NCBI GenBank assembly: GCA_037445735.1
Contig: JBBIJY010000009.1
Span: 35,241 to 99,240 of the forward strand
Reading direction: 5' to 3'
Source of the DNA: Armatimonadota bacterium
Lineage (GTDB): Bacteria > Armatimonadota > Fimbriimonadia > Fimbriimonadales > GBS-DC
DNA length: 64,000 nucleotides
Both the position numbers and the translations under genes were made by a program. This document shows positions 8,946 to 64,000 of the stretch, piece by piece. The notes below the pieces were generated by a model that did no database searches, had not been told where the DNA came from, and saw only the letters and a list, made by a program, of their open reading frames with translations. Every line of letters begins with the position of its first letter. Within the stretch, counting starts at the first letter, position 1.

Positions 8946-9854
8946 TCACGCGCGCGGATGGGCGCGCTTGTAAACCTCCTTGAGGCGTTCAAGGTCGACC
9001 TGCGTATAGATTTGCGTGGTGGCGATGTCGCTGTGTCCGAGCAGCTCCTGCACGGTGCGCAAGTCGGCGCCGCCGCTGAGCAGATGTACGGCGAACGAGT
9101 GGCGCAGGGTGTGGGGCGAGATGTTTTTGGTGATGCCCGCACTGGCAGCGTAGAGCTTGACCTTGTTCCAGAAGGCGATTCGGCTCAGTTTGCCACCGCG
9201 CTCGTTGAGGAACACGCAGTCGGTTCCGTGCGGGCGGCGGTCGGGTTTGAGCAGTTTGGGTCGCGCTTCGCTGAGGTAGCGCTGGAGCCAGCCGGTGGCG
9301 TTCTCGGTGAGGGGCACGAGCCGCTCGCGCGACCGCTTGCCCTGCACGCGCAGCAGGCGGTCCGTTAGATTCAGATGCTCCATGCGCAGGTTCAGCAGTT
9401 CCGACACGCGCAGCCCTGTGGCGTACATCAGTTCCAGCATGGCGCGGTCGCGGATGCCGAGCGGGCTATCGAGCGGGGGCTGAAGCATCAGGCGGCGGAT
9501 TTCGCCTGGCGTGAGCGTGCTGGGCAGGGCGCGACGGGGCTTGACAGCGGTGAGCGCTTCGGGTGGCTCGTCGGTCAGCAGCCCGCGCCGATGGAGATAG
9601 CGCAGGAACGCGCGCGTCGCGCTCAGCTTGCGAGCAATGCTCGATTCGCTCATCGAACGGCGGCGCAGATAATAGAGGAAACCCTCCCAGAGGCTGGCGT
9701 CCCATTCGGCAGGCTCCAGCCGATCGGCGCGAACGAGATAATCGACAAACTGCGCCAGATCGGTGGCGTAGGCGTTCAGGGTGTGCGGCGAGAGTTGCCG
9801 CTCCCGCCGCAGATAGTCCAGAAAGCTGTCGACCCACTGCTCCCAGAGTGTCAT
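8946..9854 (-). CDS. xerD: Site-specific tyrosine recombinase XerD
   Basis: RDRAMLELMYATGLRVSEL, HTLRHSFAVHLL, LLGHSDIATTQIYT; homology begins at MTLWEQWVDSFLDYL. Confidence 0.88.
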   Translation of the reverse strand: MTLWEQWVDSFLDYLRRERQLSPHTLNAYATDLAQFVDYLVRADRLEPAEWDASLWEGFLYYLRRRSMSESSIARKLSATRAFLRYLHRRGLLTDEPPEALTAVKPRRALPSTLTPGEIRRLMLQPPLDSPLGIRDRAMLELMYATGLRVSELLNLRMEHLNLTDRLLRVQGKRSRERLVPLTENATGWLQRYLSEARPKLLKPDRRPHGTDCVFLNERGGKLSRIAFWNKVKLYAASAGITKNISPHTLRHSFAVHLLSGGADLRTVQELLGHSDIATTQIYTQVDLERLKEVYKRAHPRA

Positions 9855-9876
9855 CCCTCCCAGGTAGGCTACCAGC
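9848..9876 (-). CRISPR. Solitary degenerate CRISPR-type repeat containing the xerD ATG
   Basis: GCTGGTAGCCTACCTGGGAGGGATGACAC matches the repeat at 62843-62872 at 24/30 positions (manual alignment) and follows a homologous leader. Confidence 0.6.
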
Positions 9877-10028
9877 CAACCCCTGTAGCGGGCAGGCGTG
9901 AACACCCACCCACGCAGAGGCATCTCCCTGAACCCCAGTCGAACCCCTCACCCGATTGCAGGGTTCACACGCTCCTTTGCCCCTTTGGCGTTTATACTAT
10001 ACTTCAGCGATGACGGTGAAGTCAAGGG
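9877..10028 (-). promoter_or_regulatory. Promoter + leader module upstream of xerD, homologous to the leader before the pdxT mini-array
   Basis: TTGACT (10025-10020) -18 nt- TATAGT (10001-9996); ~80% identical to 62634-62787 by hand alignment. Confidence 0.75.
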
Positions 10029-10058
10029 ATGTCCAAAGATGTCCAGAGAGAAGGCAAA

Positions 10059-10317
10059 CCCCTCACCCCAGCCCTCTCCCCCGCTGGGGGAGAGGGAGCA
10101 TCCGAACCCCTCTCCCCCGCCTGCGGAGAGGGAGCATCCGAACCCCTCTCCCCCGCGTGCGGGGGAGAGGGTACGGGTGAGGGGGCTATATCCTGCACGC
10201 CTGCAAGAAACCCCTCACCCCAGCCCTCTCCCCAGAGGGAAAGCTAACCCCTCACCCCTACCCTCTCCCCTGTGGGGAGAGGGAGAAATAACTCCCTCAC
10301 CCCAGAGGGGAGAGGGA
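10059..10317. repeat. Cluster of CCCTCTCCCC...GGGGAGAGGG palindromic REP-like units (family A)
   Basis: About six hairpin units, many with CCCCTCACCC arms. Confidence 0.9.
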
Positions 10318-10318
10318 G

Positions 10319-13300: not shown

Positions 13301-13987
13301 CACTGGTTCCTGATGCTCATAACCGCTCACCATCAGCTGCTGGATGAGCGCGTCAGGGGAAATGAATGGCTGGGGCGTCCCGCCCCGCAATGCCCCCTCA
13401 CCCGTACCCTCTCCCCCGCTGGGGGAGAGGGGTTCAGTTGCTCCCTCTCCCCTCTGGGGAGAGGGCTGGGGTGAGGGGTTTCCTGCAAGCCTGCGCCCCA
13501 CAGCCCCCTCACCCGTACCCTCTCCCCCGCTGGGGGAGAGGGGTTCGGACGCTTCCTCGCCATCCTCAACGGTGGCGAGGGCTAACAGCAATTGTTCAAA
13601 CATCGCGGGGGGCATCGTGCGTTGCAGGGCGGCGGCAAGCGGAGCAATCACGATGACCGATTCGCCCCGATAGAGCGCCCGCAGCGCGCGCACCCGCTCA
13701 TGCAGAACCTCCAGCTCCACTCCCGTCGGCTCCATCACGGGCGTCAACCCTGCTGGCACACGCACCAGCCGCGATTCAGGGACGCCGAGCCGCAGCAGGA
13801 TCGCCAGCCACTGCTCGGCGCGCTCCAGCGAAGGGGTCAGAATCAGCGCAGGGGCTTGCTGGTCAGCCATCAGCGCTGCTGTCAGCACAGGCGCCGACTC
13901 CGAACACACCTCGCGCCACACCAGCGGACGTCCCCCATCCCAGTCAGGCAATCCACCCCGCAACGCCTGTAGCCAGACGGGCAACAT
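10319..13987 (-). CDS. mfd: Transcription-repair coupling factor Mfd
   Basis: [44 protein letters not shown]-terminus. Confidence 0.97.
12508..12542. repeat. Family B palindrome in-frame within mfd
   Basis: TGGACTGCGGAAGC-agg-GCTTCCGCACTCCA; encodes [12 protein letters not shown]. Confidence 0.75.
13392..13550. repeat. Family A REP cluster in-frame within mfd
   Basis: Three hairpin units; encodes [14 protein letters not shown]...[13 protein letters not shown]...[14 protein letters not shown]. Confidence 0.9.
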
Positions 13988-32794: not shown

Positions 32795-32941
32795 CCCTCT
32801 CCCCCGCAAGCGGGGGAGAGGGTACGGGTGAGGGGGCTTTTTATCCTGCCAGGCTGAGAAAACCCCCACCCCGACCCTCTCCTTAGCAGGGAGAAACTAA
32901 GCCCCTCTCCCCCAAAGGGGGAGAGGGTACGGGTGAGGGGC
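32795..32941. repeat. Family A REP cluster
   Basis: Three CCCTCTCC...GGGAGA hairpin units. Confidence 0.88.
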
Positions 32942-38397: not shown

Positions 38398-39794
38398 GAG
38401 CGATGACCTTACGCGAGGTTGCGCAGGCGTTGCATGCGAGCCTGCCTGTGCTGCTGACGGGCGAGGAGCGCGTGCAGGGCGTCACGACCGACAGTCGCAC
38501 GGTGCAGGCGGGCGACCTGTTCTTTGCGCTGCGGGGCGAACGCACCGATGGACACATGTACCTGCAGGAGGTGTTCGCGAAGGGCGCGGTCGCTGCGGTG
38601 GTGGAGTATATCCCGATTGGCGCGGAAGGGCTGCCCCTGCTGCGCGTGCCCTCCACCCTGCAGGCGCTGGGCACGCTGGCGCACCACTACCGCATGCAGA
38701 TGCCCGATCTGGTGGTGATCGGCATCACAGGCAGCACGGGCAAGACCACCACGCGCGCGATGACCGCCGCCGCGCTTGAAGCGGGCTATCCTGGCGCCAT
38801 CCAGAGCAGCCCGGGCAACTTCAACACCGAGATTGGCGTGCCGCTCACCATCTTCGGGCTGGAGGCGCACCATCGGCTGCTGGTGCAGGAGATGGCGATG
38901 CGCGGGCGCGGGCAAATCGCCTACCTTGCCGGGATCGCCCGCCCGCAAATCGGCGTCATCACTCAAATCGGCTGGTCACACATCGAGCTGCTGGGCAGCC
39001 GTCAGGCGATTGCGGAGGCGAAGGGCGAGCTGCTGCTGGCATTGCCACCCGACGGGTGGGCAATCCTGCCCCGCGACGACAGGTTCTATGAGTTCCTGCG
39101 TTCGCTGGCGCCCTGCCCCGTGCTGACCTTCGGACGCCATCCCGAATCGGACGCCTGCCTGCTCGAAACGCGCCTTGCGCCCGACAGCACCACAGGCGTC
39201 ATCCAGATTCGGATACCCGCCACCGGCGAGCGAGCGATTGTCGAACTCACCCTGCCCTATCTGGGCGAGCATCTGCTGATGAACGCGACGGTCGCCCTGC
39301 TGGTCGCTGCCGTGCTGGGTGTCGATCTGGAGCGGGCTGCCCGCGCGCTGGCGCAGGTGCAACTGCCCGAGATGCGCATGAACATTCAGCCCCAGCCCGG
39401 CGGCTGGACGCTCATCAACGACGCCTACAACGCGAACCCCGATTCGATGCGCGCGGCGCTGCAGGTGCTGCTCTATCAGGCGCCTGCTAAACGCCGGATC
39501 GCCATTCTGGGCGATATGAAGGAGCTGGGCGCCTACAGTATGCGCCTGCACTGGCAACTGGGGCGCTGGCTTGCCACTCAGCCGCTCGATTACCTGATTC
39601 TGGTCGGCTACGATGTGCTATGGACGGCGGCTGCCGCCAGGGAGGGCGGGTTCCCCCCTCAGCGCGTGCTGCACTTCGAGAACCCGCTGAGCGCAGGGGA
39701 GTGGCTCTGGCGCAATGTGCAAAAGGGCGACTGGGTACTGCTCAAAGGCTCCCGCGCCATCGGACTGGAACGCATCATGGGCGTGAAGGCGTAA
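38394..39794 (+). CDS. murF: UDP-MurNAc-pentapeptide ligase MurF
   Basis: GSTGKTTT, NTEIGVP, NDAYNANPDSM, KGSR. Confidence 0.96.
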   Translation: MRAMTLREVAQALHASLPVLLTGEERVQGVTTDSRTVQAGDLFFALRGERTDGHMYLQEVFAKGAVAAVVEYIPIGAEGLPLLRVPSTLQALGTLAHHYRMQMPDLVVIGITGSTGKTTTRAMTAAALEAGYPGAIQSSPGNFNTEIGVPLTIFGLEAHHRLLVQEMAMRGRGQIAYLAGIARPQIGVITQIGWSHIELLGSRQAIAEAKGELLLALPPDGWAILPRDDRFYEFLRSLAPCPVLTFGRHPESDACLLETRLAPDSTTGVIQIRIPATGERAIVELTLPYLGEHLLMNATVALLVAAVLGVDLERAARALAQVQLPEMRMNIQPQPGGWTLINDAYNANPDSMRAALQVLLYQAPAKRRIAILGDMKELGAYSMRLHWQLGRWLATQPLDYLILVGYDVLWTAAAAREGGFPPQRVLHFENPLSAGEWLWRNVQKGDWVLLKGSRAIGLERIMGVKA

Positions 39795-39880
39795 TCAGCC
39801 TCCCTCTCCCCCTTTGGGGGAGAGGGTACGCAATCAGCCTCCCTCTCCCCCAGAGGGGGAGAGGGTACGGGTGAGGGGGC
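39794..39880. repeat. Tandemly duplicated family A REP units between murF and mraY
   Basis: AATCAGCCTCCCTCTCCCCC....GGGGGAGAGGGTACG occurs twice. Confidence 0.85.
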
Positions 39881-40955: not shown

Positions 40956-42493
40956 ACTGGAGCGAGATGCGGGTGGCAATCGTTGGCACGGGGCGTAGCG
41001 GCATAGCCGCTGCCGCCGCACTGCTCCAGCGCGGCGCCACCGTCGAACTGTATGACCGCAACATGCAGCTGGATGCACTGGAACAGTTGATGGCGCATCT
41101 GGAAAACGCTCAGCTCGATCCCGATATGGAGATCACTATTGCAGGGTTCCCGCAACAGGATGTGCCTGACTGGGAATCGCCGCCCGATCTGATTATCGTC
41201 AGCCCTGCCCTGCCCCCGTCGCATCCGCTGTTTGAGGGCGCCCGCGCGCACGGCGTCCCCGTCTGGAGCGAGATCGAGCTGGGCTATCGCCTCGCAAAAG
41301 CGCCCATTATTGCCATCACGGGCACAAACGCCAAAACGACGACCGCCGCGCTTGTCCACCACCTGCTGACCCATGCGGGCATCCGGGCGCACCTGTGCGG
41401 CAATATCGCGGGCACCGAAAGCGACCAGACGCTTACCACCGCCGCGCTCAAGGCACAGCCCGACGAGTGGCTTGTGGCGGAGGTCAGCTCGTTCCAGCTG
41501 CAAAACATCCATCAATTTCGCCCGCACATCGCGGTCATCACCAATATCACGCCCGATCATCTGGACTATCATGGCAGTTTTGAGGCGTACGCGCGGGCGA
41601 AGGGGCGATTGCTGGAGAACCTGACGCCCGACGACTGGGCAGTGCTGAACGGCAACGATGCGGGCATCCAGCAGCTTCTAAAATGGCTGCGTGCCGAGAA
41701 CTGCCCCGGATTGCTGAATGTGGAGCGCGCGGGGCATCTGATCCTGAATCCCGCTTCCCTGTGGGGAGATGAAGAACCCAAATCCCTCTCCCCCTCTGGG
41801 GGAGAGGGGGTTGCTGAAGCCCTCTCCCCCGCCTGCGGGGGAGAGGGTACGGGTGAGGGGGCTGTTCCCAGCGGTGAAGAGAGGAACCCCTCACCCCAAC
41901 CCTCTCCCCAGCGGGGAGAGGGGGTTTCTGACGCCCTCTCCCTTTCTGGAGGAGAGGGTATGGGTGAGGGGGCACTTTTAGCAGCAGCTGTCGCACGGAT
42001 AGTGGGCTGTAGCGAGGCACAGATTCAAACAGCACTGACAAGCTTTCGTGGCGTGCCCCACCGCATGGAGTTCGTCGCCGAAATCAAAGGCGTGCGGTTC
42101 ATCAACAACTCGATGTGTACCAACGCCGCCGCGCTGGATTACTCCCTGCGCCTTGCACCCAAGCCCTGCATCGTGATCGCGGGCGGTGTCGATAAGAACG
42201 ATTCAGCGGAGCAGCTCGCCGATGCAATCCGCCGATATTGCCGCGCAGCGATTCTGATCGGTCAGGATGGCGAGCGCATCGGTGCATGCCTGAGCGCGGC
42301 GGGCTACACGAACTGGCGCTATGCAGGCACGCTGGAACGCGCTGTGGAGCAGGCGTTCGCGCTGGCGCAATCGGGCGAAACGGTGATTCTGGCGCCAGGC
42401 TGCGCCAGCTTCGATCAGTTCCGCAACTTTATCGAGCGCGGCGAGCGGTTCCGCGCATGCGTGCGAACACTGAGCGAGAGAGGTCAGGGATGA
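40952..42493 (+). CDS. murD: UDP-MurNAc-L-Ala:D-Glu ligase MurD
   Basis: ITGTNAKTTT, EVSSFQL, DHLDYH, HRME, PGCASFDQF. Confidence 0.93.
   Translation: MNWSEMRVAIVGTGRSGIAAAAALLQRGATVELYDRNMQLDALEQLMAHLENAQLDPDMEITIAGFPQQDVPDWESPPDLIIVSPALPPSHPLFEGARAHGVPVWSEIELGYRLAKAPIIAITGTNAKTTTAALVHHLLTHAGIRAHLCGNIAGTESDQTLTTAALKAQPDEWLVAEVSSFQLQNIHQFRPHIAVITNITPDHLDYHGSFEAYARAKGRLLENLTPDDWAVLNGNDAGIQQLLKWLRAENCPGLLNVERAGHLILNPASLWGDEEPKSLSPSGGEGVAEALSPACGGEGTGEGAVPSGEERNPSPQPSPQRGEGVSDALSLSGGEGMGEGALLAAAVARIVGCSEAQIQTALTSFRGVPHRMEFVAEIKGVRFINNSMCTNAAALDYSLRLAPKPCIVIAGGVDKNDSAEQLADAIRRYCRAAILIGQDGERIGACLSAAGYTNWRYAGTLERAVEQAFALAQSGETVILAPGCASFDQFRNFIERGERFRACVRTLSERGQG
41783..41973. repeat. Family A REP cluster in-frame within murD
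   Basis: Four hairpin units encoding ~63 aa of a G/E/P/S-rich insert. Confidence 0.9.
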
Positions 42494-44894: not shown

Positions 44895-47507
44895 ATGCAG
44901 TCCCCGACGGGCATCCCGCTGACGACCGACCGCGAACCCAGCCTCCAGACGCGATTCCATTTTGTGGGCATCGGGGGCGCGAGCATGTCCGCGCTGGCAC
45001 GCTGGCTCGCCGAAAAGGGCGCAACGGTCAGCGGCTCCGACCTTGCCGACTCACCTGCGCTGGAATCGCTGCGCACGCGCGGTATCCATGCCTACGCGCC
45101 TCACGACCCCGCACGGATGGGTGAACCCGACTGGCTGATTGTGTCCGACGCCATCCATCCTGATAACCCCGAAGTGATGGAAGCACAGCGTCGCCACCTG
45201 CCCATCTGGCGACGCTCGCAGCTGATGGGCTGGCTGCTGAAGCCCTATCGCGTGATTGCCATCAGCGGCACGCACGGCAAAAGCACCACCACCGCGCTTG
45301 TTGCTGCCATTCTGGAAGCGGCTGGCTACGACCCGCTCGTGCTGCTGGGCGCCGACACGCCGCTCACCACGCCCCCATGGGCGGGCAATATCCGACTGGG
45401 CAGCGGCGAATGGGCAGTCGTCGAAGCCTGCGAAGCCTACGAGTCGTTTCTGGACTTCCAGCCCGACATCGCGCTCATCACCAGCATCGAACCTGACCAC
45501 CTCGATTATCATGGCACTTTTGAGAATCTGCTAACGAGTTTTGCCCGCTTCCTGCACCAGCTGAAACCCGAAGGGTGCTGGATTGGCTGTGGGGATCATC
45601 CGGGGGTACAGCGGCTCTGCGAGCGTGGCGATGTGCCGCGCCCGCGCCTGCTGTACGGCTTCACTGTGGACTGCGGAAGCCCCGCTTCCGCAGTCCAAAC
45701 TGCTGAAATCATCGAGCGAACGCCCTCCATCACCCGCTTCCGCGTGAAGAATGAGCCCCTCTCCCCCACAGGGGCGGAGGGCGAATCCAGACCCCTCTCC
45801 CCCAGTGGGGGAGAGGGTACGGGTGAGGGGGTTTTTTATCCTGCATCTGCGATCAACCCCTCACCCCAACCCTCTCCCCAGAGGGGAGAGGGGGTTTCTG
45901 AAGCCCTCTCCCCCTTTGGGGGCGAGGGTACGGGTGAAGGAGTGCCATCTCCAGCCGATTGGGACTTCGCCCTGCCGCTTGTGGGCGATCACAATGTGCT
46001 GAACGCGCTGGGCGCGATTGGCATCGCCCAGCTGCTGAACATCCCGATGGAGGTGGCACAGCGTGCACTAACAGGGTTTCAGGGCGTTCGGCGGCGGCAG
46101 GAGCTGATTGGCGAGGCGATGGGTATCACGCTCGTAGACGACTACGCGCACCACCCGACGGAGATCGACGCCACGCTCGCCGCGTTGCGCCAGCGGTTCC
46201 CCAACCGCCGCCTGATCGTGCTTTTCCAGCCGCATCTGTACAGTCGCACGCGCGACCTGCTGGGAGGGCTGATCCAGAGCCTGCGCGGCGCCGACATGGT
46301 GGTCATCACCGATATTTATCCCGCTCGCGAGAAGCCAATACCAGGCGTGAGCGCGTCGCTGATTGCCGATGGCTTGCTGGAGGGCGATCAGCCACCCACG
46401 CTCTATGTGCCCATCAAAGAGCAGATCCCTGCGCGTCTCCTGCCCCATCTGATGCCGGGCGATGTGGTGGTCACGATGGGCGCAGGTGATATCGATAAGG
46501 TGGCGCCCGCCCTGCTACGCATGCTGGAGGCGCGGGGTCAGGTGCGGCGACTGCGCATCGCTGTGCTGATGGGCGGCGACTCGCCCGAACGCGATGTGTC
46601 GCTGCTCTCTGGCTCGCGTGTGCTGCAGGCGCTCGACCCCGACCGCTACATCGGCATCCCGGTGGACCCTGCCCTGATGCGCGGCCGGGAGGGCGTCTGG
46701 GGACTGCTCGATTTATTGCAAAGCGAACGCCCCGATCTCGCTTTCATCGCTTTGCACGGTCGGCACGGCGAGGACGGCGCGATTCAGGGTCTGCTGGAGA
46801 TGCTCGGCATCCCCTACACGGGTTCGGGTATCCTGCCCAGCGCACTCGCCATGAACAAATACGCTGCCAAAATCGTGTTGCAATCGGCGGGCATCATCAC
46901 GCCGCGCGGCGTGCTGGTGTCGCGTGCGGAACTGAACGAACTGCTAACGCCTGCTGCCAGCCCGAAGCTTGCCGGGCTGAAACCACCGCTGATTGTGAAG
47001 CCCAACGAGGGCGGCTCCACGCTGGGCACAACGCGCGTGTGGGAGTGGGAGCAGTTGCCCCGTGCCCTGCGGAAGGCGTTCGCCTACGACGAGCGCGCCT
47101 TGATCGAGGAGCTGATTGAGGGTGTGGAGGTCTCCGTGCCCGTGATTGGCACGCGCCATCCGCGCGCGCTGCCCCCTGTGGAGATTGTGCCCCGCGGCGG
47201 CTTCTACGGCTTTCAGGCAAAATACACCCCCGGCTGGACAGAGGAGATTGTGCCCGCTCGCCTGCCCGATGAACTGCTGGATGTGCTGATGGCGACCGCC
47301 CTGCAGGCGCACCTCGCGCTCGGCTGCCGCAGCATGAGCCGTGTGGATATAATCCTGCGCGAGCGCGTGCCCTTCGTGCTGGAGGTGAACACGATTCCGG
47401 GCTTGACCCCCACCTCGCTTCTGCCGCGCAGCGCGGAGGCGGCGGGCATCCCCTTCCAGCAACTGATCACTTTGCTGATAGAGGACGCGCTGGAGGGTTC
47501 CTCATGA
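44895..47507 (+). CDS. murC-ddl: Bifunctional MurC / D-Ala-D-Ala ligase fusion
   Basis: N-terminal GIGGASMS, GTHGKSTTT, DDYAHHPTE; C-terminal GGDSPERDVSL, LHGRHGEDG, EVNTIPG. Confidence 0.93.
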   Translation: MQSPTGIPLTTDREPSLQTRFHFVGIGGASMSALARWLAEKGATVSGSDLADSPALESLRTRGIHAYAPHDPARMGEPDWLIVSDAIHPDNPEVMEAQRRHLPIWRRSQLMGWLLKPYRVIAISGTHGKSTTTALVAAILEAAGYDPLVLLGADTPLTTPPWAGNIRLGSGEWAVVEACEAYESFLDFQPDIALITSIEPDHLDYHGTFENLLTSFARFLHQLKPEGCWIGCGDHPGVQRLCERGDVPRPRLLYGFTVDCGSPASAVQTAEIIERTPSITRFRVKNEPLSPTGAEGESRPLSPSGGEGTGEGVFYPASAINPSPQPSPQRGEGVSEALSPFGGEGTGEGVPSPADWDFALPLVGDHNVLNALGAIGIAQLLNIPMEVAQRALTGFQGVRRRQELIGEAMGITLVDDYAHHPTEIDATLAALRQRFPNRRLIVLFQPHLYSRTRDLLGGLIQSLRGADMVVITDIYPAREKPIPGVSASLIADGLLEGDQPPTLYVPIKEQIPARLLPHLMPGDVVVTMGAGDIDKVAPALLRMLEARGQVRRLRIAVLMGGDSPERDVSLLSGSRVLQALDPDRYIGIPVDPALMRGREGVWGLLDLLQSERPDLAFIALHGRHGEDGAIQGLLEMLGIPYTGSGILPSALAMNKYAAKIVLQSAGIITPRGVLVSRAELNELLTPAASPKLAGLKPPLIVKPNEGGSTLGTTRVWEWEQLPRALRKAFAYDERALIEELIEGVEVSVPVIGTRHPRALPPVEIVPRGGFYGFQAKYTPGWTEEIVPARLPDELLDVLMATALQAHLALGCRSMSRVDIILRERVPFVLEVNTIPGLTPTSLLPRSAEAAGIPFQQLITLLIEDALEGSS
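45666..45700. repeat. Family B palindrome in-frame within murC
   Basis: TGGACTGCGGAAGC-ccc-GCTTCCGCAGTCCA; encodes [12 protein letters not shown]. Confidence 0.75.
45755..45940. repeat. Family A REP cluster in-frame within murC
   Basis: Encodes [46 protein letters not shown]. Confidence 0.9.
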
Positions 47508-52115: not shown

Positions 52116-53087
52116 ATGCGAATCTTTCTCACAGGGTGCGCAGGCTTTATCGGCGCAAAGACGGCGCAACTGCTGCTGGAGCAGGAGGCGCAGGTCATCG
52201 GCGTGGACAACCTCAACGACGCCTATGACCCCCGCCTCAAACAGTGGCGACTGACCCAGCTGGAACGCTTCCCGAACTTCCAGTTCCATCAACTGGACAT
52301 CAGCGACTGGGAGGCGACACGGGCGCTGTTTGAAGCCTATCGCCCCTACGATGCGGTGATTAATCTGGCGGCGCGGGCAGGCGTGCGCCAGAGCGTGGAG
52401 AACCCATGGGTCTATATCGCCACCAACATCACGGGCGCGCTGAACCTGCTGGAACTGTGCCGGCGCCACGATGTGCCCAAATATATTCTGGCGTCCACCT
52501 CCAGCCTGTACGGCAATAACGAACGCCCCTTCCGCGAGGATCAGCCGACCGACCAGCCGCTCTCCCCTTACGCCGCCTCCAAAAAGGGCGCGGAGGCTCT
52601 CTGCCACACCTACCACCACCTCTATGGGCTGGACATCACGGTGCTGCGCTACTTCACCGTGTACGGTCCCGCCGGGCGACCCGATATGAGCATCTTCCGA
52701 TTCGTGCGCTGGATTGCGGAGGGCGAGCCGATTCAACTGTTTGGGGACGGTTTGCAGGAGCGCGACTTCACCTATGTGGACGACATCGCGCGGGGCACGA
52801 TCGCCGCGCTCAAACCGCTCGGCTACGCCATCATCAATCTGGGGGGCGACCGCCCCGTGTCGCTGCGCTGGGTGATTGAAACGCTGGAGCGCCTGCTGGG
52901 CAAGCCCGCCCGCTGGGTTCAGGCACCGATGCACCCCGCCGATGTGAAAGCCACCTGGGCGGACATCACCCGCGCGCGCACCCTGCTCGGCTGGGAACCG
53001 CAGGTGCCCCTCGAAGAGGGACTGCGCCGCTGCGTCGAATGGTACCTCCAGAATCGCGACTGGGCAAGGGAGATTCAACTGCCATGA
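52116..53087 (+). CDS. NAD-dependent epimerase (UDP-glucuronate 4-epimerase-like)
   Basis: TGCAGFIG, AARAGVRQS, YAASK, RPDM. Confidence 0.9.
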   Translation: MRIFLTGCAGFIGAKTAQLLLEQEAQVIGVDNLNDAYDPRLKQWRLTQLERFPNFQFHQLDISDWEATRALFEAYRPYDAVINLAARAGVRQSVENPWVYIATNITGALNLLELCRRHDVPKYILASTSSLYGNNERPFREDQPTDQPLSPYAASKKGAEALCHTYHHLYGLDITVLRYFTVYGPAGRPDMSIFRFVRWIAEGEPIQLFGDGLQERDFTYVDDIARGTIAALKPLGYAIINLGGDRPVSLRWVIETLERLLGKPARWVQAPMHPADVKATWADITRARTLLGWEPQVPLEEGLRRCVEWYLQNRDWAREIQLP

Positions 53088-59859: not shown

Positions 59860-61532
59860 CCCATCACCTCTGCGGGCGATTCTGCAGCCGCTGGGGGCGC
59901 AACCGCGAGCTGATTCGTGCGCTTCCAGTGGAACGCCAGCTCTACCACTGACCATAGTAAAACCACCGGCAAGGAGGTCGTAGCGTCCAGCAAATCGGAA
60001 TGGACAGAATCATAGGCAAGCACCGAGACCATTGCTGCTGCCACGGCCACCACCAATGAACGCGCCCAGGGATCATGACAGCTGAAAAATGCCACAGCTG
60101 CACGAATGAAAAAGCCTATCAGAAGCAGCGCCAGCAAGCCCGTGCCTATCAAACCGATATGAAGCTGACGCGCCAGCCACGGAAAGTGCATTTGAGTTTT
60201 CAAAATATATACATTTGTAAAACGAGGGTTCCTGATTCCCGCTTGAGTGAGTGAAACATACCGTCCATAATCGGCTTCAAGCCCGGCTCCGAAAAGGCGC
60301 TGCCAGAGGGTGAGTCGCTCCATGCGTATCTCCCACGCTTCGCGTTCACGCACACGCGCCAGATAGGATGGGTCGCTGCGCGGGTCGCCTCCAAACGCAT
60401 AGTTGCGCTCCCAGCGCTGAACCGCCTCTGAAACAATTCGATTTACTACCCCGCTCACCACAGGATGCAGCATTAGTACCAGCCCAAATAGAATCGCTGT
60501 TAAACCGATCTGTAGCTGACGCAGCAACGCCTGCGGCGGCTTCCAGAGCAGCACCAGCGGCATCACAGCCATCATCCCCCCCCATAATGCACGATTTTTG
60601 GTTGCCAGAACCGCATATAATGCTAACGCAATGTAGACGACCGCAACCGCCGCTTTCCAGCCGCGGTAGTAGCCCAGTGAATAAAGCGCAAAAAAGAAAC
60701 CCAGCACAACAATATAAAGCCCAGCAGGGTCGCGAATACGATAGCCCTCTTCTGTCTCCCCAGCCGCTCTCAGCTGAAAGAGAACCTTCCAGAAGAAAGG
60801 CAACGGCGCGAAATATTCCCAGAGAATCGAAAGAAGCGCCACCGTCAGCACAATGCCGATCGCTGCTGCGACACGCTTCATCCGCTGTACATCCCTTAGC
60901 AAAACTATAAGAGGAAGAATGCCTATCCAGAGCATGTGCGCATCAAAGTAACGAAAAATTCCCTTACCAGCATATCCCAGCACAACCTCAGCATTGTCAT
61001 ATGGAAGCTTATCTTGTAAAAAGATGTAAATATAGCCTACATGGAGCATATAATAGCCCCAGAAAATCAACAATAGGGCGATAAACCACGAGAAGATGTG
61101 TGGGCGTTCCGCACGCGGGATGCGCACATATTCATAAATCGCACGCGCCGAAACAATCCCAAAAAAGAGCAGAATAAGCGTGCGCTCTCCTGTGCCACCG
61201 CCGGGGCCTGCAGCAAAGTACATCGCGTTGACGAACAATCCTGATCCTGCTGTGATAAAAACCACCACACTCAATTCAGGAACAAAAAACGCCAGCGGCG
61301 CCAGCAACGCCAGAATCGTGAACGCGATCGCGCGGTTGTCCTGACCCTGCAGCAGAAAGATCAGGACCACCAGATTCGCCAGCACCACCACCCCGATTGT
61401 GAGCAGGTTCGTCCAGCGCTCCTGTGTCATCCAGCAGCTGATGCGCGCGGTTAACGCAGACACCCACTCCAGCGGCAGTGTTAGCACATCGCGCAACCCT
61501 GTAAGCCGCTCCCGCGTTGTTCCCAGTGCCAT
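59856..61532 (-). CDS. O-antigen polymerase/ligase-like membrane protein
   Basis: Many TM segments, periplasmic loop with FGAG...H...GLIG, context. Confidence 0.65.
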
Positions 61533-61612: not shown

Positions 61613-62545
61613 ATGGAGACGCTGGACAGAAGCCTGCAAAGCGAAGCCGTCAGTCGCTATGAGGTTCAGAAAGCCACCTGGCGCGTGAAGGTCGGTCTGG
61701 CGGAGATGTTGCGCGGTGGCGTGATTATGGATGTCACCGACGCCGAGCAGGCGCAGATTGCCGAGGAGGCGGGCGCCGTCGCCGTGATGGCGCTGGAGCG
61801 CGTGCCCGCCGACATCCGACGCGAGGGCGGCGTCGCTCGCATGGCGGACCCGCTCAAGATTCTGGAAATCAAGCAGGCTGTTACCATCCCCGTGATGGCG
61901 AAGTGTCGAATCGGGCACTTCGCCGAGGCGATGATTCTGGAAGCGCTCGGCGTCGACTTCATCGACGAGAGCGAGGTGCTGACCCCCGCTGATGAGGAGC
62001 ATCACATCAACAAGCACGCCTTTCGCGTGCCGTTTGTGTGCGGGGCGCGGGAGCTGGGCGAGGCGCTGCGCCGAATCGGGGAAGGCGCCGCCATGATCCG
62101 CACCAAAGGCGAGGCGGGCACAGGCAATATCGTGGAAGCCGTGCGCCACATGCGCGCGATTATGCGCGACATCCGTCGCATCAAAAGCGCACCCGAAGAC
62201 GAGCTGATGAGCATCGCCAAACAGCTGCAGGCGCCTTACGACCTCGTGGTGGAGATTCACCAGACGGGTCGCCTGCCCGTGCCGAACTTCTCGGCGGGCG
62301 GCATCGCGACGCCTGCCGACGCCGCGCTGATGATGTGGCTCGGCGCGGAGGCGGTGTTCGTCGGGTCGGGCATCTTCAAATCGTCTAACCCGCGCGCTCG
62401 CGCCCGCGCCATCGTGGACGCCGTGACCTACTATCGCGAGCCAGAGATCCTCGCGGAGGTCTCCAAAGGGCTGGGCGAGGCGATGCCCGGCATCGATGTA
62501 CGCCGCCTGGCTGAAGAAGAGCTGCTTGCCGTGCGCGGCTGGTAG
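61613..62545 (+). CDS. pdxS: Pyridoxal 5'-phosphate synthase lyase subunit
   Basis: [31 protein letters not shown]. Confidence 0.98.
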
Positions 62546-62633
62546 CTACAGGAGCGTGAAGGCTATGCCTGCTATCCGAGCGAAGAAGATGAGCGCGGCG
62601 GACTTTCAGGTCCGTTGGCGCATTTAGACGGAC

Positions 62634-62787
62634 CCCTTGACTTCGCTGTCATCGATGGGGTATAGTACAAGCGCCATCGGGGCAAAGCTGTGCGTGCACC
62701 TTGACAATCGGGCGAAGGGTCCGATTGGAGTTCAGAGCTGTGCCTCTGAGCGGGTGGGCGTTCGCGCCTGCCCGCTGCAGGGGGTTG
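62634..62787 (+). promoter_or_regulatory. Promoter + putative CRISPR leader
   Basis: TTGACT (62637) -18 nt- TATAGT (62661); hairpins; abuts the first repeat; homologous copy upstream of xerD. Confidence 0.7.
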
Positions 62788-62872
62788 GTTTGTAGCCTAC
62801 CTCTGAGGGATTGAAAGAATCGTTTGTAGCCTATTCGAGAAAGTTTGTAGCCTACCTCTGAGGGATTGAAAC
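62788..62872 (+). CRISPR. Orphan CRISPR mini-array (2 repeats, one aberrant 25-nt spacer)
   Basis: GTTTGTAGCCTACCTCTGAGGGATTGAAA(G/C) at 62788-62817 and 62843-62872; 30 bp, ATTGAAAC end typical of type I-B/III repeats. Confidence 0.78.
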
Positions 62873-63435
62873 TCGGCGTACTGGCGTTGCAGGGCGATTT
62901 CGAGAAACACGCGGCGATGCTGGAGCGCATCGGCGTCGACTGGCGCGAGGTGCGCAAGGTCGCCGATCTCCACTCCGTCGACGCGCTGATTATCCCCGGC
63001 GGCGAAAGCACCACCATCGGGCGGCTGATGGCACGCTATGGACTCGATACCGCCATCCGCGAGCGGGCACAACAGGGCATGCCCATCTACGGCACCTGCG
63101 CTGGCATGATCCTGCTGGCAAAAGAGATTGCCGGCAGCCAGCAGGAACGGCTGGGGCTGATGGATATTGAGGTTATCCGCAACGCCTTCGGCAGCCAGAT
63201 CGAAAGCTTCGAAGCCGACCTGCCCTTCAAACCACTGGGCGACCGCCCTGTGCGAGCGGTTTTCATCCGTGCGCCTGTCGTGAGCCGCGCGGGCGCCCGT
63301 GTGGAGGTGTTGAGCGAGTTTGACGGCAAAATCGTGGCGGTTCAGCAGGGCAAGCTGCTGGCGACGGCGTTCCACCCGGAGCTGACCGACGACGAGCGCG
63401 TTCACCGCTACTTTTTAAGCCTGCTGACCCGATAA
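62866..63435 (+). CDS. pdxT: PLP synthase glutaminase subunit
   Basis: GVLALQG, PGGESTT, GTCAG, FHPEL; TTG start inside repeat 2. Confidence 0.96.
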   Translation: MKLGVLALQGDFEKHAAMLERIGVDWREVRKVADLHSVDALIIPGGESTTIGRLMARYGLDTAIRERAQQGMPIYGTCAGMILLAKEIAGSQQERLGLMDIEVIRNAFGSQIESFEADLPFKPLGDRPVRAVFIRAPVVSRAGARVEVLSEFDGKIVAVQQGKLLATAFHPELTDDERVHRYFLSLLTR

Positions 63436-63438
63436 AAA

Positions 63439-63516
63439 TGGTCGGGGCGCCCGGATTCGAACCGGGGACCTCCTGCACCCAAAGCAGGCGCGCTAACCAT
63501 GCTGCGCTACGCCCCG
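63439..63516 (-). tRNA. tRNA-Pro (TGG)
   Basis: CGGGGCG acceptor stem, CCTGC-TTTGGGT-GCAGG arm, GTTCGAATC, CCA. Confidence 0.95.
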
Positions 63517-63534: not shown

Positions 63535-63945
63535 TAGCTGGCTCCGGGCGAGTGTGAGCGTGGTTTGCGCTGCATCGAGCGGCTGATGCGACACATAGCC
63601 CTTCTCGTGCAGGGATTGGACACGCTCATAGTTGCGCTGGGCTTCCTGCAGGCGGGCTTCGGCGTCGCGCACGGCGTTCGCCACCTCGATGCGCTCCTGC
63701 GGGTGCTTCACCGGCTCCAGCATGCGAAGGTTCTCCTGTGCGCTCTGATAGGCGGCTTCGGCGGCACGGAGGGCAGCCTATGTGAGCGCGGACTGCGCTT
63801 TCGGCTCGCGCTCCATCGGCTCCACGCGCAGCTGCGCCTGACGCACGGCGAGGCGAGCCTCTTTCGCCTGCATCTAGAGTGCAAGTTGCGCCTGTGCGGT
63901 GCTGAGTCGCGCCGATTCGACCGGCGCACGGCCCTGCTCCACCTG
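63535..63945 (-). pseudogene. Degenerate HlyD/efflux adaptor-like coiled-coil fragment
   Basis: One frame reads ...AQENL...EAQRNYERVQSLHEKGYVS..LDAAQ with in-frame TAGs at 63874-63876 and 63778-63780. Confidence 0.6.
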
Positions 63946-64000
63946 TCACCAATCCAACCACAACACCTCGTATCCACACAACCCGATTGCCGTCGATCAC

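Follow-up and report, generated by a model that had tools for sequence, protein, structure and literature searches.

Fragments of a type I-B CRISPR locus at the starts of pdxT and xerD in an Armatimonadota genome: possible scars of self-targeting

In this work we describe a CRISPR leader and two CRISPR repeats that lie between pdxS, encoding a PLP synthase subunit, and pdxT, encoding the glutaminase subunit, together with a diverged leader and repeat at the start of a xerD-type recombinase gene. Both loci occur in one stretch of 64,000 nucleotides (the window), corresponding to C9:35241-99240 of a metagenome bin (G000; 2.78 Mb in 59 contigs, 99.2% complete). The segment 62300-63440 occurs in 4 DNA runs from a single study of subsurface metagenomes, and the best match of PdxT is a protein of an uncultured Fimbriimonadales bin (Armatimonadota), at 80%.

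All features of the pdxT locus lie on the forward (+) strand unless stated otherwise. The pdxS gene (61613..62545; Pfam SOR_SNZ, 360.8 bits) probably starts at ATG 61613, where a TATAAT box stands 9 nt 5' of the codon, and its mRNA too may be leaderless; a longer pdxS reading frame with a TTG start at 61517 in the list of open reading frames is probably wrong. It is followed by a 38-nt 5' remnant of a Uma2-like gene (62565..62602), at the end of which homology to a sister strain stops, and by a 29-nt filler at the left joint (62603..62631) that is unique in the genome. A copy of a CRISPR leader (62632..62787) carries a promoter-like sequence, TTGACT-18-TATAGT, at 62637-62666, which fits at 10 of 12 positions and is the sole such site within 62300-63000. 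Repeat copy 1 (62788..62817), which has one mismatch (final base G), is separated from repeat copy 2 (62843..62872) by a 25-nt pseudo-spacer (62818..62842) composed of AATC, nucleotides 1-12 of the repeat and TTCGAGAAA. The last 9 nt of this pseudo-spacer equal pdxT 62899-62907, and the 35 nt behind repeat copy 2 end with these 9 nt. The pdxT gene itself (62866..63435; 189 aa; Pfam SNO, 219 bits) begins within repeat copy 2, and directly behind it lies a tRNA-Pro gene on the reverse strand (63439-63516).

Repeat copy 2, GTTTGTAGCCTACCTCTGAGGGATTGAAAC, is an exact copy of the 30-nt repeat of the genome's type I-B CRISPR system and scores 43.3 bits against the Rfam family CRISPR-DR2 (gathering score 37). 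Two copies were observed in the window where none was expected (100 shuffles); a further match at 52328 to nucleotides 1-12 of the repeat, inside an epimerase gene, was dismissed as chance. Elsewhere in the genome the same repeat has 17 matches on other contigs (at most 3 mismatches), with arrays on contigs C20, C41 and C45, and an intact type I-B cas operon is present at C2:49277-57196, comprising cas6 (C2:49277-50068), an open reading frame at the cas8b position (487 aa, which matched no NCBIfam model), cas7, cas5, cas3, cas4, cas1 and cas2. The 185 nt at 62632-62816 match the C45 array without a difference over its leader and first repeat; this array lies ~1.37 kb downstream when C9 is connected to C45 through a 55-nt contig overlap and a read-supported joint. 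The stretch 62788-62872 thus shares several properties of a CRISPR array: direct repeats like those of the genome's arrays, ending in ATTGAAAC, a promoter-bearing leader 5' of the first repeat, and cognate cas genes in the same genome. It departs from one in its spacer content, since its sole spacer measures 25 nt, of which 12 nt are repeat, and typical unique spacers are absent; among 81 spacers read from the genus, 70 measure 35-37 nt. Judged by its sequence, the element is a fragment of the genome's own type I-B locus, consisting of leader with promoter, repeat, 25-nt pseudo-spacer and repeat.

The TTG start codon of pdxT occupies nucleotides 24-26 of repeat copy 2, such that both the start and the second codon are repeat-derived. 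TTG 62866 is the first start after an in-frame TAG at 62848, position 1 of the SNO profile aligns at residue 5 of the open reading frame, and no alternative start retains the conserved N-terminus MKLGVLALQG, so that TTG 62866 is by prediction the only usable start of pdxT. Translational coupling was considered and rejected, as the frame ending at TGA 62867 contains no start codon. The gene is single-copy, with a pN/pS of 0.12 against the nearest relative (G002), and xerD has a pN/pS of 0.075 in the same comparison; both are intact genes under purifying selection.

The first-pass annotation had drawn attention to purine-rich, Shine-Dalgarno-like motifs lying only 1-2 nt before the start codon in both modules. 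This short spacing is borne out, because both modules show it and the genome has normal spacing: at pdxT, GAGGG (62860-62864) is followed by A 62865 and TTG 62866-62868, leaving 2 nt after GAGG or 1 nt after GAGGG, and at xerD the motif GGGAGGG abuts ATG on the reverse strand. Genome-wide, GGAGG peaks at -15 to -11, with no enrichment at the positions that correspond to a spacing of 1-2 nt (-6/-5), and the spacing in the modules is therefore atypical. A second claim, that other genes in the window appear to be leaderless, holds for one class of start and not for the others: a TANNNT box is enriched 6-10 nt 5' of candidate ATG starts genome-wide (an excess of ~185), with no such signal for GTG or TTG. 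Within the window the box precedes eight candidate starts, including ATG 61613 of pdxS. A search with a strict -35/-10 pattern produced no clear leaderless peak genome-wide, whereas the -10 box alone gave one. Neither pdxT nor xerD has a -10 box 6-10 nt 5' of its start, and their promoter-like sites lie ~200 nt and ~140 nt upstream, respectively. For its transcription pdxT is now predicted to use the promoter in the leader, to which read-through from pdxS may add. Folding predictions indicate that the repeat itself is essentially unstructured, and the fold of the pdxT 5' UTR is not distinctive (z-score -1.58).

Comparison with related genomes provides an indication of what preceded the module. 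Among the pdxS-pdxT regions of 18 relatives, read by eye, none contains a repeat. In six of them pdxT follows pdxS after 7-9 nt, in five a Uma2-like gene of ~190 aa lies between the two, and in the remaining seven the gap measures 44-158 nt, some with decayed Uma2-like remnants. Such remnants of 136-158 nt were seen in at least two relatives (G003 and G006), and the slot appears to be decaying independently in several lineages. In G002, which is 97-98% identical, the intervening Uma2-like gene encodes 193 aa (beginning MPAIRAKKMSAAEF...), and the start of pdxT reads ATGACCA/TCGG(TG), where the slash marks the joint seen in G000. Homology to the relatives stops at 62602 and resumes exactly at 62873, where the repeat has just ended, and in a contig of a sister strain from run X2 the positions equivalent to 62602 and 62873 are joined through 553 other letters. 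These alignments show that this lineage has exchanged ~553 nt, made up of the bulk of the Uma2-like gene and the initial ATGACCA (7 nt) of pdxT, for the 29-nt filler, the leader, repeat copy 1, the 25-nt pseudo-spacer and repeat copy 2. As a result the N-terminus of PdxT has changed from MTIGVLALQG to M(UUG)KLGVLALQG. The remainder of the Uma2-like gene was not found in the 99.2% complete assembly, and neither was a reciprocal joint. Further downstream, at 63536-64000, G000 carries other DNA with a second leader and array, and G002 has an amine-oxidase-like gene (475-aa open reading frame).

A joint between a gene and an array could in principle be created during assembly, if a self-derived spacer had led the assembler to connect an array to pdxT. 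The source is a metagenome bin and its contigs break at the 185-nt leader-plus-repeat copy, circumstances in which such an artefact could arise. The reads of run X1 speak against it: a Logan unitig (k=31) runs unbranched over 62843-63507 at a depth of 18.2, a unitig spanning repeat, 25 nt and repeat covers 62787-62871 at a depth of 15, and a third, from pdxS to the leader (62083-62661), bridges the filler at a depth of 22, which compares with neighbouring genome depths of 16.6-22 and a depth of 0 for the ancestral joint. This check covers the pdxT joint only, and unitigs of k=31 cannot tell which spacer precedes the pdxT repeat. In addition, the deleted segments are missing from the whole assembly, and we regard an artefact as extremely improbable.

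At the second locus, on the reverse strand, a diverged copy of the leader (9877..10028; 80% over 178 nt) with a promoter-like TTGACT-18-TATAGT at 10025-9996 is followed by a degenerate 29-nt repeat, GCTGGTAGCCTACCTGGGAGGGATGACAC (9848..9876), which agrees with the genome's repeat at ~22 of 30 positions and has one base missing. The xerD-type tyrosine recombinase gene (8946..9854; 302 aa, beginning MTLWEQW; Pfam Phage_integrase, 166 bits) starts at an ATG (9854-9852) that occupies the position of the TTG in the pdxT repeat. In G002, xerD begins ATG TGG GAG and has no module, the matches of relatives to xerD begin 3' of the start (query 213-241) with none reaching into the leader, and no leader copy was seen in the regions upstream of xerD in 9 relatives. 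A reciprocal joint was likewise not found at the G002-type xerD neighbour on C8. We infer that the two modules are of one kind, the one at xerD being older and decayed. From the comparisons available both modules appear to be recent and lineage-specific; they are absent from the relatives, and therefore do not represent conserved regulatory devices. In G002 (contig C26) a 26-nt palindromic repeat-like sequence, GTTTCAACCCGTTAAGGGGTTGAAA, lies directly 5' of TGTGGGAG, just upstream of xerD, such that in this genome, too, the xerD ATG arises at a repeat-like end. The sequences of G001 and G003 are different again, so that within the genus the 5' edge of xerD is a hot spot of change.

We collected all joints at which a solitary or last repeat meets non-array DNA (n=11 in G000) and, for each, sought the corresponding DNA in the nearest relative that has no repeat there. 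What is new here is that CC stands at positions -3/-2 of the flank in that relative in all seven joints at which the alignment reaches the joint. The relative reads CCA at the pdxT joint, CCT at the end of the C45 array, CCC at the joint in anmK (CCT in G003, CCA in G001), CCG both at the C21 joint and at the C10 joint at the 3' end of uvrA, CCA at the C18 joint and, upstream of an mlaD-like gene on C13, CCA in both G001 and G003. The frequency of CC genome-wide is 0.079, which for seven joints gives 0.079^7, or ~2e-8. The other four of the eleven comprise the xerD joint, which is compatible with CCN only when shifted upstream by 2 nt (G001 and G003 read CCT/CCC, then TG/TGGGAG), two joints that have no usable homologue among the 3 genus relatives (the C20 and C41-start flanks), and one that was left out. 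For Clostridioides difficile, excerpts of PMC8406132 and PMC8482600 give 5'-CCN, located 5' of the protospacer, as the PAM of type I-B adaptation and interference, and the same sources give CCA, CCN and CCT for other I-B repeat clusters; CCN is thus taken here from other I-B systems and may not be the PAM of G000 itself.

Loss of DNA was also found to be asymmetric with respect to these joints. On the PAM side, 553 nt are lost at pdxT, 784 nt at C21, 817 nt at C18 and 529 nt at anmK, and synteny is kept further out. In place of the lost DNA stand leader and repeats (pdxT), leader and repeat (C21), one repeat (C18) and repeat-spacer-repeat (anmK), and in none of these four cases was the lost segment found elsewhere in the assembly. 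At the C10 joint the left neighbour has been relocated to C41. The anmK case, at G000:C45:4385-4480, is a leaderless repeat-spacer-repeat that replaces the first ~529-nt region and leaves the gene 5'-truncated; anmK is intact in G002, G001 and G003. On contig C13 (16042-16109) TTGACT-18-TATAGT is joined straight to a repeat variant without the body of the leader, 16 nt 5' of the mlaD-like gene, and this module is older, because G000 and G002 (C8) share it.

One explanation for such units is that an ordinary orphan mini-array landed at pdxT through illegitimate recombination or gene transfer, the in-frame start being a product of chance and selection. In its favour, the genus has many short arrays that carry this leader, a large number of which end in gene fragments, and a gene start is supplied at only 2 of the ~11 joints. 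Weighing against it are the CC at -3/-2 in seven of seven testable joints, the location of the losses on the PAM side and the pseudo-spacers that echo the flank, and we consider this origin improbable. Aberrant spacers number just 2 of 81, namely the 25-nt pseudo-spacer at pdxT and a 21-nt spacer before the last repeat of C45, and each ends with the last part (9 and 17 nt, respectively) of the 35 and 36 nt that follow the next repeat.

Taken together with the PAM pattern, these features lead us to favour, with moderate confidence, a scenario in which the modules are scars of CRISPR self-targeting and in which the genes later came to use the promoter of the leader and the start codon of the repeat. 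A spacer would have been acquired from the cell's own pdxT, the putative former protospacer being the 35 nt at 62873..62907 (+), which CCA precedes in the nearest relative. Cascade-Cas3 would then have damaged the PAM side of this target, and survivors may have repaired the gap on the template of the CRISPR array through the 35-nt homology between spacer and target; alternatively, the second step may have been the joining by the integrase of a PAM-trimmed DNA end to a repeat. With its PAM side turned into repeat, the site would have ceased to be a target. A by-product would have been the loss by pdxT of its own start and ribosome-binding site, and the UUG within the 8-nt handle would now have to be used. 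Only those events that spared the function of an essential gene would have persisted, and at pdxT and xerD the end of the repeat would have happened to provide an in-frame start.

Several observations sit uneasily with self-targeting as the origin of the modules. A simple crossover leaves the complete repeats at the left edge, the fillers and the pseudo-spacers unexplained, and the xerD joint agrees with CCN only with its 2-nt offset. When 81 spacers were compared with G000 by BLAST, one spacer of G001 matched 33 of the 36 positions of G000:C3:48680-48715, where the 5' flank reads ATT and not CCN. The match on C3 could also reflect targeting across strains or of a mobile element. One further spacer of the 81 matched a tRNA-like piece in G000. 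Two G000 spacers yielded no matches in viral contigs, two spacers compared with 228 genomes of the order matched only within their own arrays, and no PAM could be derived from these searches or from the 81 spacers compared with G000. The intact self-spacer was not found either: a metagenome scan for TTCGAGAAA followed by the start of the repeat returned one contig, with an unrelated spacer. This contig carries an array with a sister repeat, and its spacer (1521-1556) ends in GATTTCGAGAAA, which equals pdxT 62896-62907 (12 nt) and is probably a chance resemblance. An unrelated spacer thus shares 12 nt with pdxT, and therefore part of the 9-nt echo in the pseudo-spacer could also be chance. For short arrays in G001 and G002, alignments of the flanks to G000 and to 5 other genomes did not reach the joint.

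The arrangement of a repeat, a short spacer and a repeat also recalls a CreA/CreR-like regulatory mini-array, in which the pseudo-spacer would guide Cascade to repress a promoter. The characteristic features of CreTA/CreR, which are degenerate repeats, seed complementarity and adjacent cas genes, were not found at the pdxT module. Its repeats are not degenerate, the cas genes lie on another contig, and the seed (5') part of the pseudo-spacer is repeat sequence with only the last 9 nt matching pdxT, all of which makes this function very hard to credit. Beyond the individual loci, we tentatively entertain, with more doubt than confidence, a stereotyped form of repair in this lineage that follows the acquisition of self-derived spacers, in which DNA on the PAM side of the target is replaced by a repeat, sometimes with the leader, copied from an array, disarming the target and scattering leader promoters and Cas6 sites through the genome; pdxT and xerD would thereby be wired to CRISPR transcription and to the RNA handling of Cas6 and Cascade, and Cas6 cuts could even set their translation.

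The last of these ideas bears directly on the first-pass annotation, which had proposed that cleavage of the repeat by a Cas6-type enzyme exposes the start codon as a leaderless or nearly leaderless mRNA, and that cleavage could switch translation on or bound Cas proteins could block it. The proposed geometry is sound. Type I-B Cas6b cuts repeats of 30 nt and 37 nt to produce crRNAs with an 8-nt 5' tag, AUUGAAAC (PMC3479195, in excerpt), and by analogy the handle at pdxT would be the 8-nt ATTGAAAC (62865-62872), with a predicted cut on the + strand between 62864 and 62865 that would leave a 5'-OH and A-UUG as the first nucleotides. The equivalent cut at xerD is predicted to give 5'-AUG. On this analogy the exact pdxT repeat is very likely to be cut by Cas6b 1 nt before the UUG; recognition of the xerD repeat by Cas6 is uncertain because that repeat is degenerate.

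That such a cut turns translation on is a separate proposition. In its favour are the agreement of the geometry with the 8-nt tag of I-B Cas6b, the absence of a normally spaced Shine-Dalgarno motif and of an upstream reading frame for coupling, with the sole promoter-like site ~200 nt 5', the predicted lack of pairing over the initial 11 nt of the pdxT RNA after the cut, and the presence of a leaderless-like class of genes in the genome. A 5'-terminal AUG, the usual first codon of leaderless mRNAs (rarely GUG), would be found on the cut RNA of xerD; that of pdxT would begin A-UUG. Leaderless initiation strongly prefers AUG, with UUG much less efficient in E. coli (PMC9031893, in part), and in Caulobacter it falls ~2-fold with each extra 5' nucleotide (a passage of PMC8459731). 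The pdxT RNA would combine three such handicaps, namely a UUG codon, an additional nucleotide 5' of it and a 5'-OH end, and the genome's -10-proximal class has no TTG or GTG signal. Work by Giliberti in 2012 reportedly found that a 5' phosphate is required for leaderless initiation. In type I complexes, Cas5 and Cas7, which are subunits of Cascade, bind the crRNA handle, and the start codon would lie inside the very handle they would bind. Considering also the degenerate repeat of xerD and the status of the modules as recent, probable scars that are not conserved, we view an on-switch as distinctly unlikely.

The opposite outcome, repression, would arise if a cut by Cas6b and loading of Cas5 and Cas7 onto the handle hid the start codon, so that PdxT and XerD fell when CRISPR is highly expressed. 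An exact repeat stands behind a CRISPR leader, cas6, cas5 and cas7 are intact, and in the I-B system of Haloferax Cas5, Cas6 and Cas7 stabilise crRNAs (PMC3945376, in excerpt). Strong repression would be costly for a gene that is under purifying selection, as pdxT is, and we judge such control to be unlikely. The effect of the cut on pdxT translation is expected to be neutral or inhibitory and not that of an on-switch, and most likely Cas6 cutting has no designed role at the fused genes.

Elements resembling parts of these modules have been described in other systems. Orphan or isolated mini-arrays and solitary repeats, as presented in parts of PMC8616872, are similarly fragments of leader and repeat away from cas genes with 1-3 repeats; here, by contrast, the repeats abut chromosomal sequence that carries a PAM in relatives, and two of them supply a housekeeping start codon. 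Routes of escape from self-targeting include mutation or deletion of the target, PAM, spacer or cas genes, and anti-CRISPRs (PMC6990116, in excerpt). Shared with these routes is the loss of the PAM and of DNA next to the target, the type I system of the host being intact; here, by contrast, the lost DNA has been replaced, exactly at the edge of the protospacer, by a repeat or by leader and repeat, and replacement templated by an array is not among the escape routes in the portions of PMC6990116 drawn on. Recombination between spacer and target, through which a CRISPR locus becomes connected to the targeted DNA (Varble 2019 and Watson 2018, cited in an excerpt of PMC8616872), would rely on the same substrate, a spacer-protospacer identity of 30-40 bp; those studies concern phage DNA and transduction, whereas the present case would involve the cell's own chromosome and a fixed product.

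With respect to translation, the model in which MazF generates leaderless mRNAs by cutting at AUG sites (Vesper 2011, via part of PMC9031893), which other laboratories did not reproduce, likewise invokes an endoribonuclease that cuts just 5' of a start codon, although here the predicted nuclease is Cas6b and the start is UUG. Engineered Csy4 sites in mRNAs (PMC4604432, in excerpt) also place a repeat in the 5' region where an endoribonuclease alters the fate of the mRNA; those sites are synthetic, with a hairpin repeat and a start codon outside it. Among the titles and abstracts found on Cas6 and leaderless mRNA and on orphan arrays driving genes, no natural fusion of a repeat to a start codon and no case of a leaderless mRNA made by Cas6 was encountered. 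Escape from CRISPR self-targeting is said to have been treated by Vercoe in 2013.

If self-targeting did give rise to the modules, genomes would record escape from CRISPR autoimmunity in which an array served as repair template and the PAM was converted to repeat. The origin of orphan leader-repeat units would be explained, and a purely genomic readout of PAMs and of past self-targeting would become available. More generally, promoters and start codons of core metabolism genes can originate from an immune locus, and the pdxT and xerD fusions provide natural test cases for the action of Cas6 and Cascade on mRNAs. In addition to these modules, the window contains a family of palindromic repeats, CCCTCTCCCC...GGGGAGAGGG, with many intergenic copies (10043-10318, 13378-13561, 32812-32940, 39790-39876, 41750-41973 and 45757-45943).
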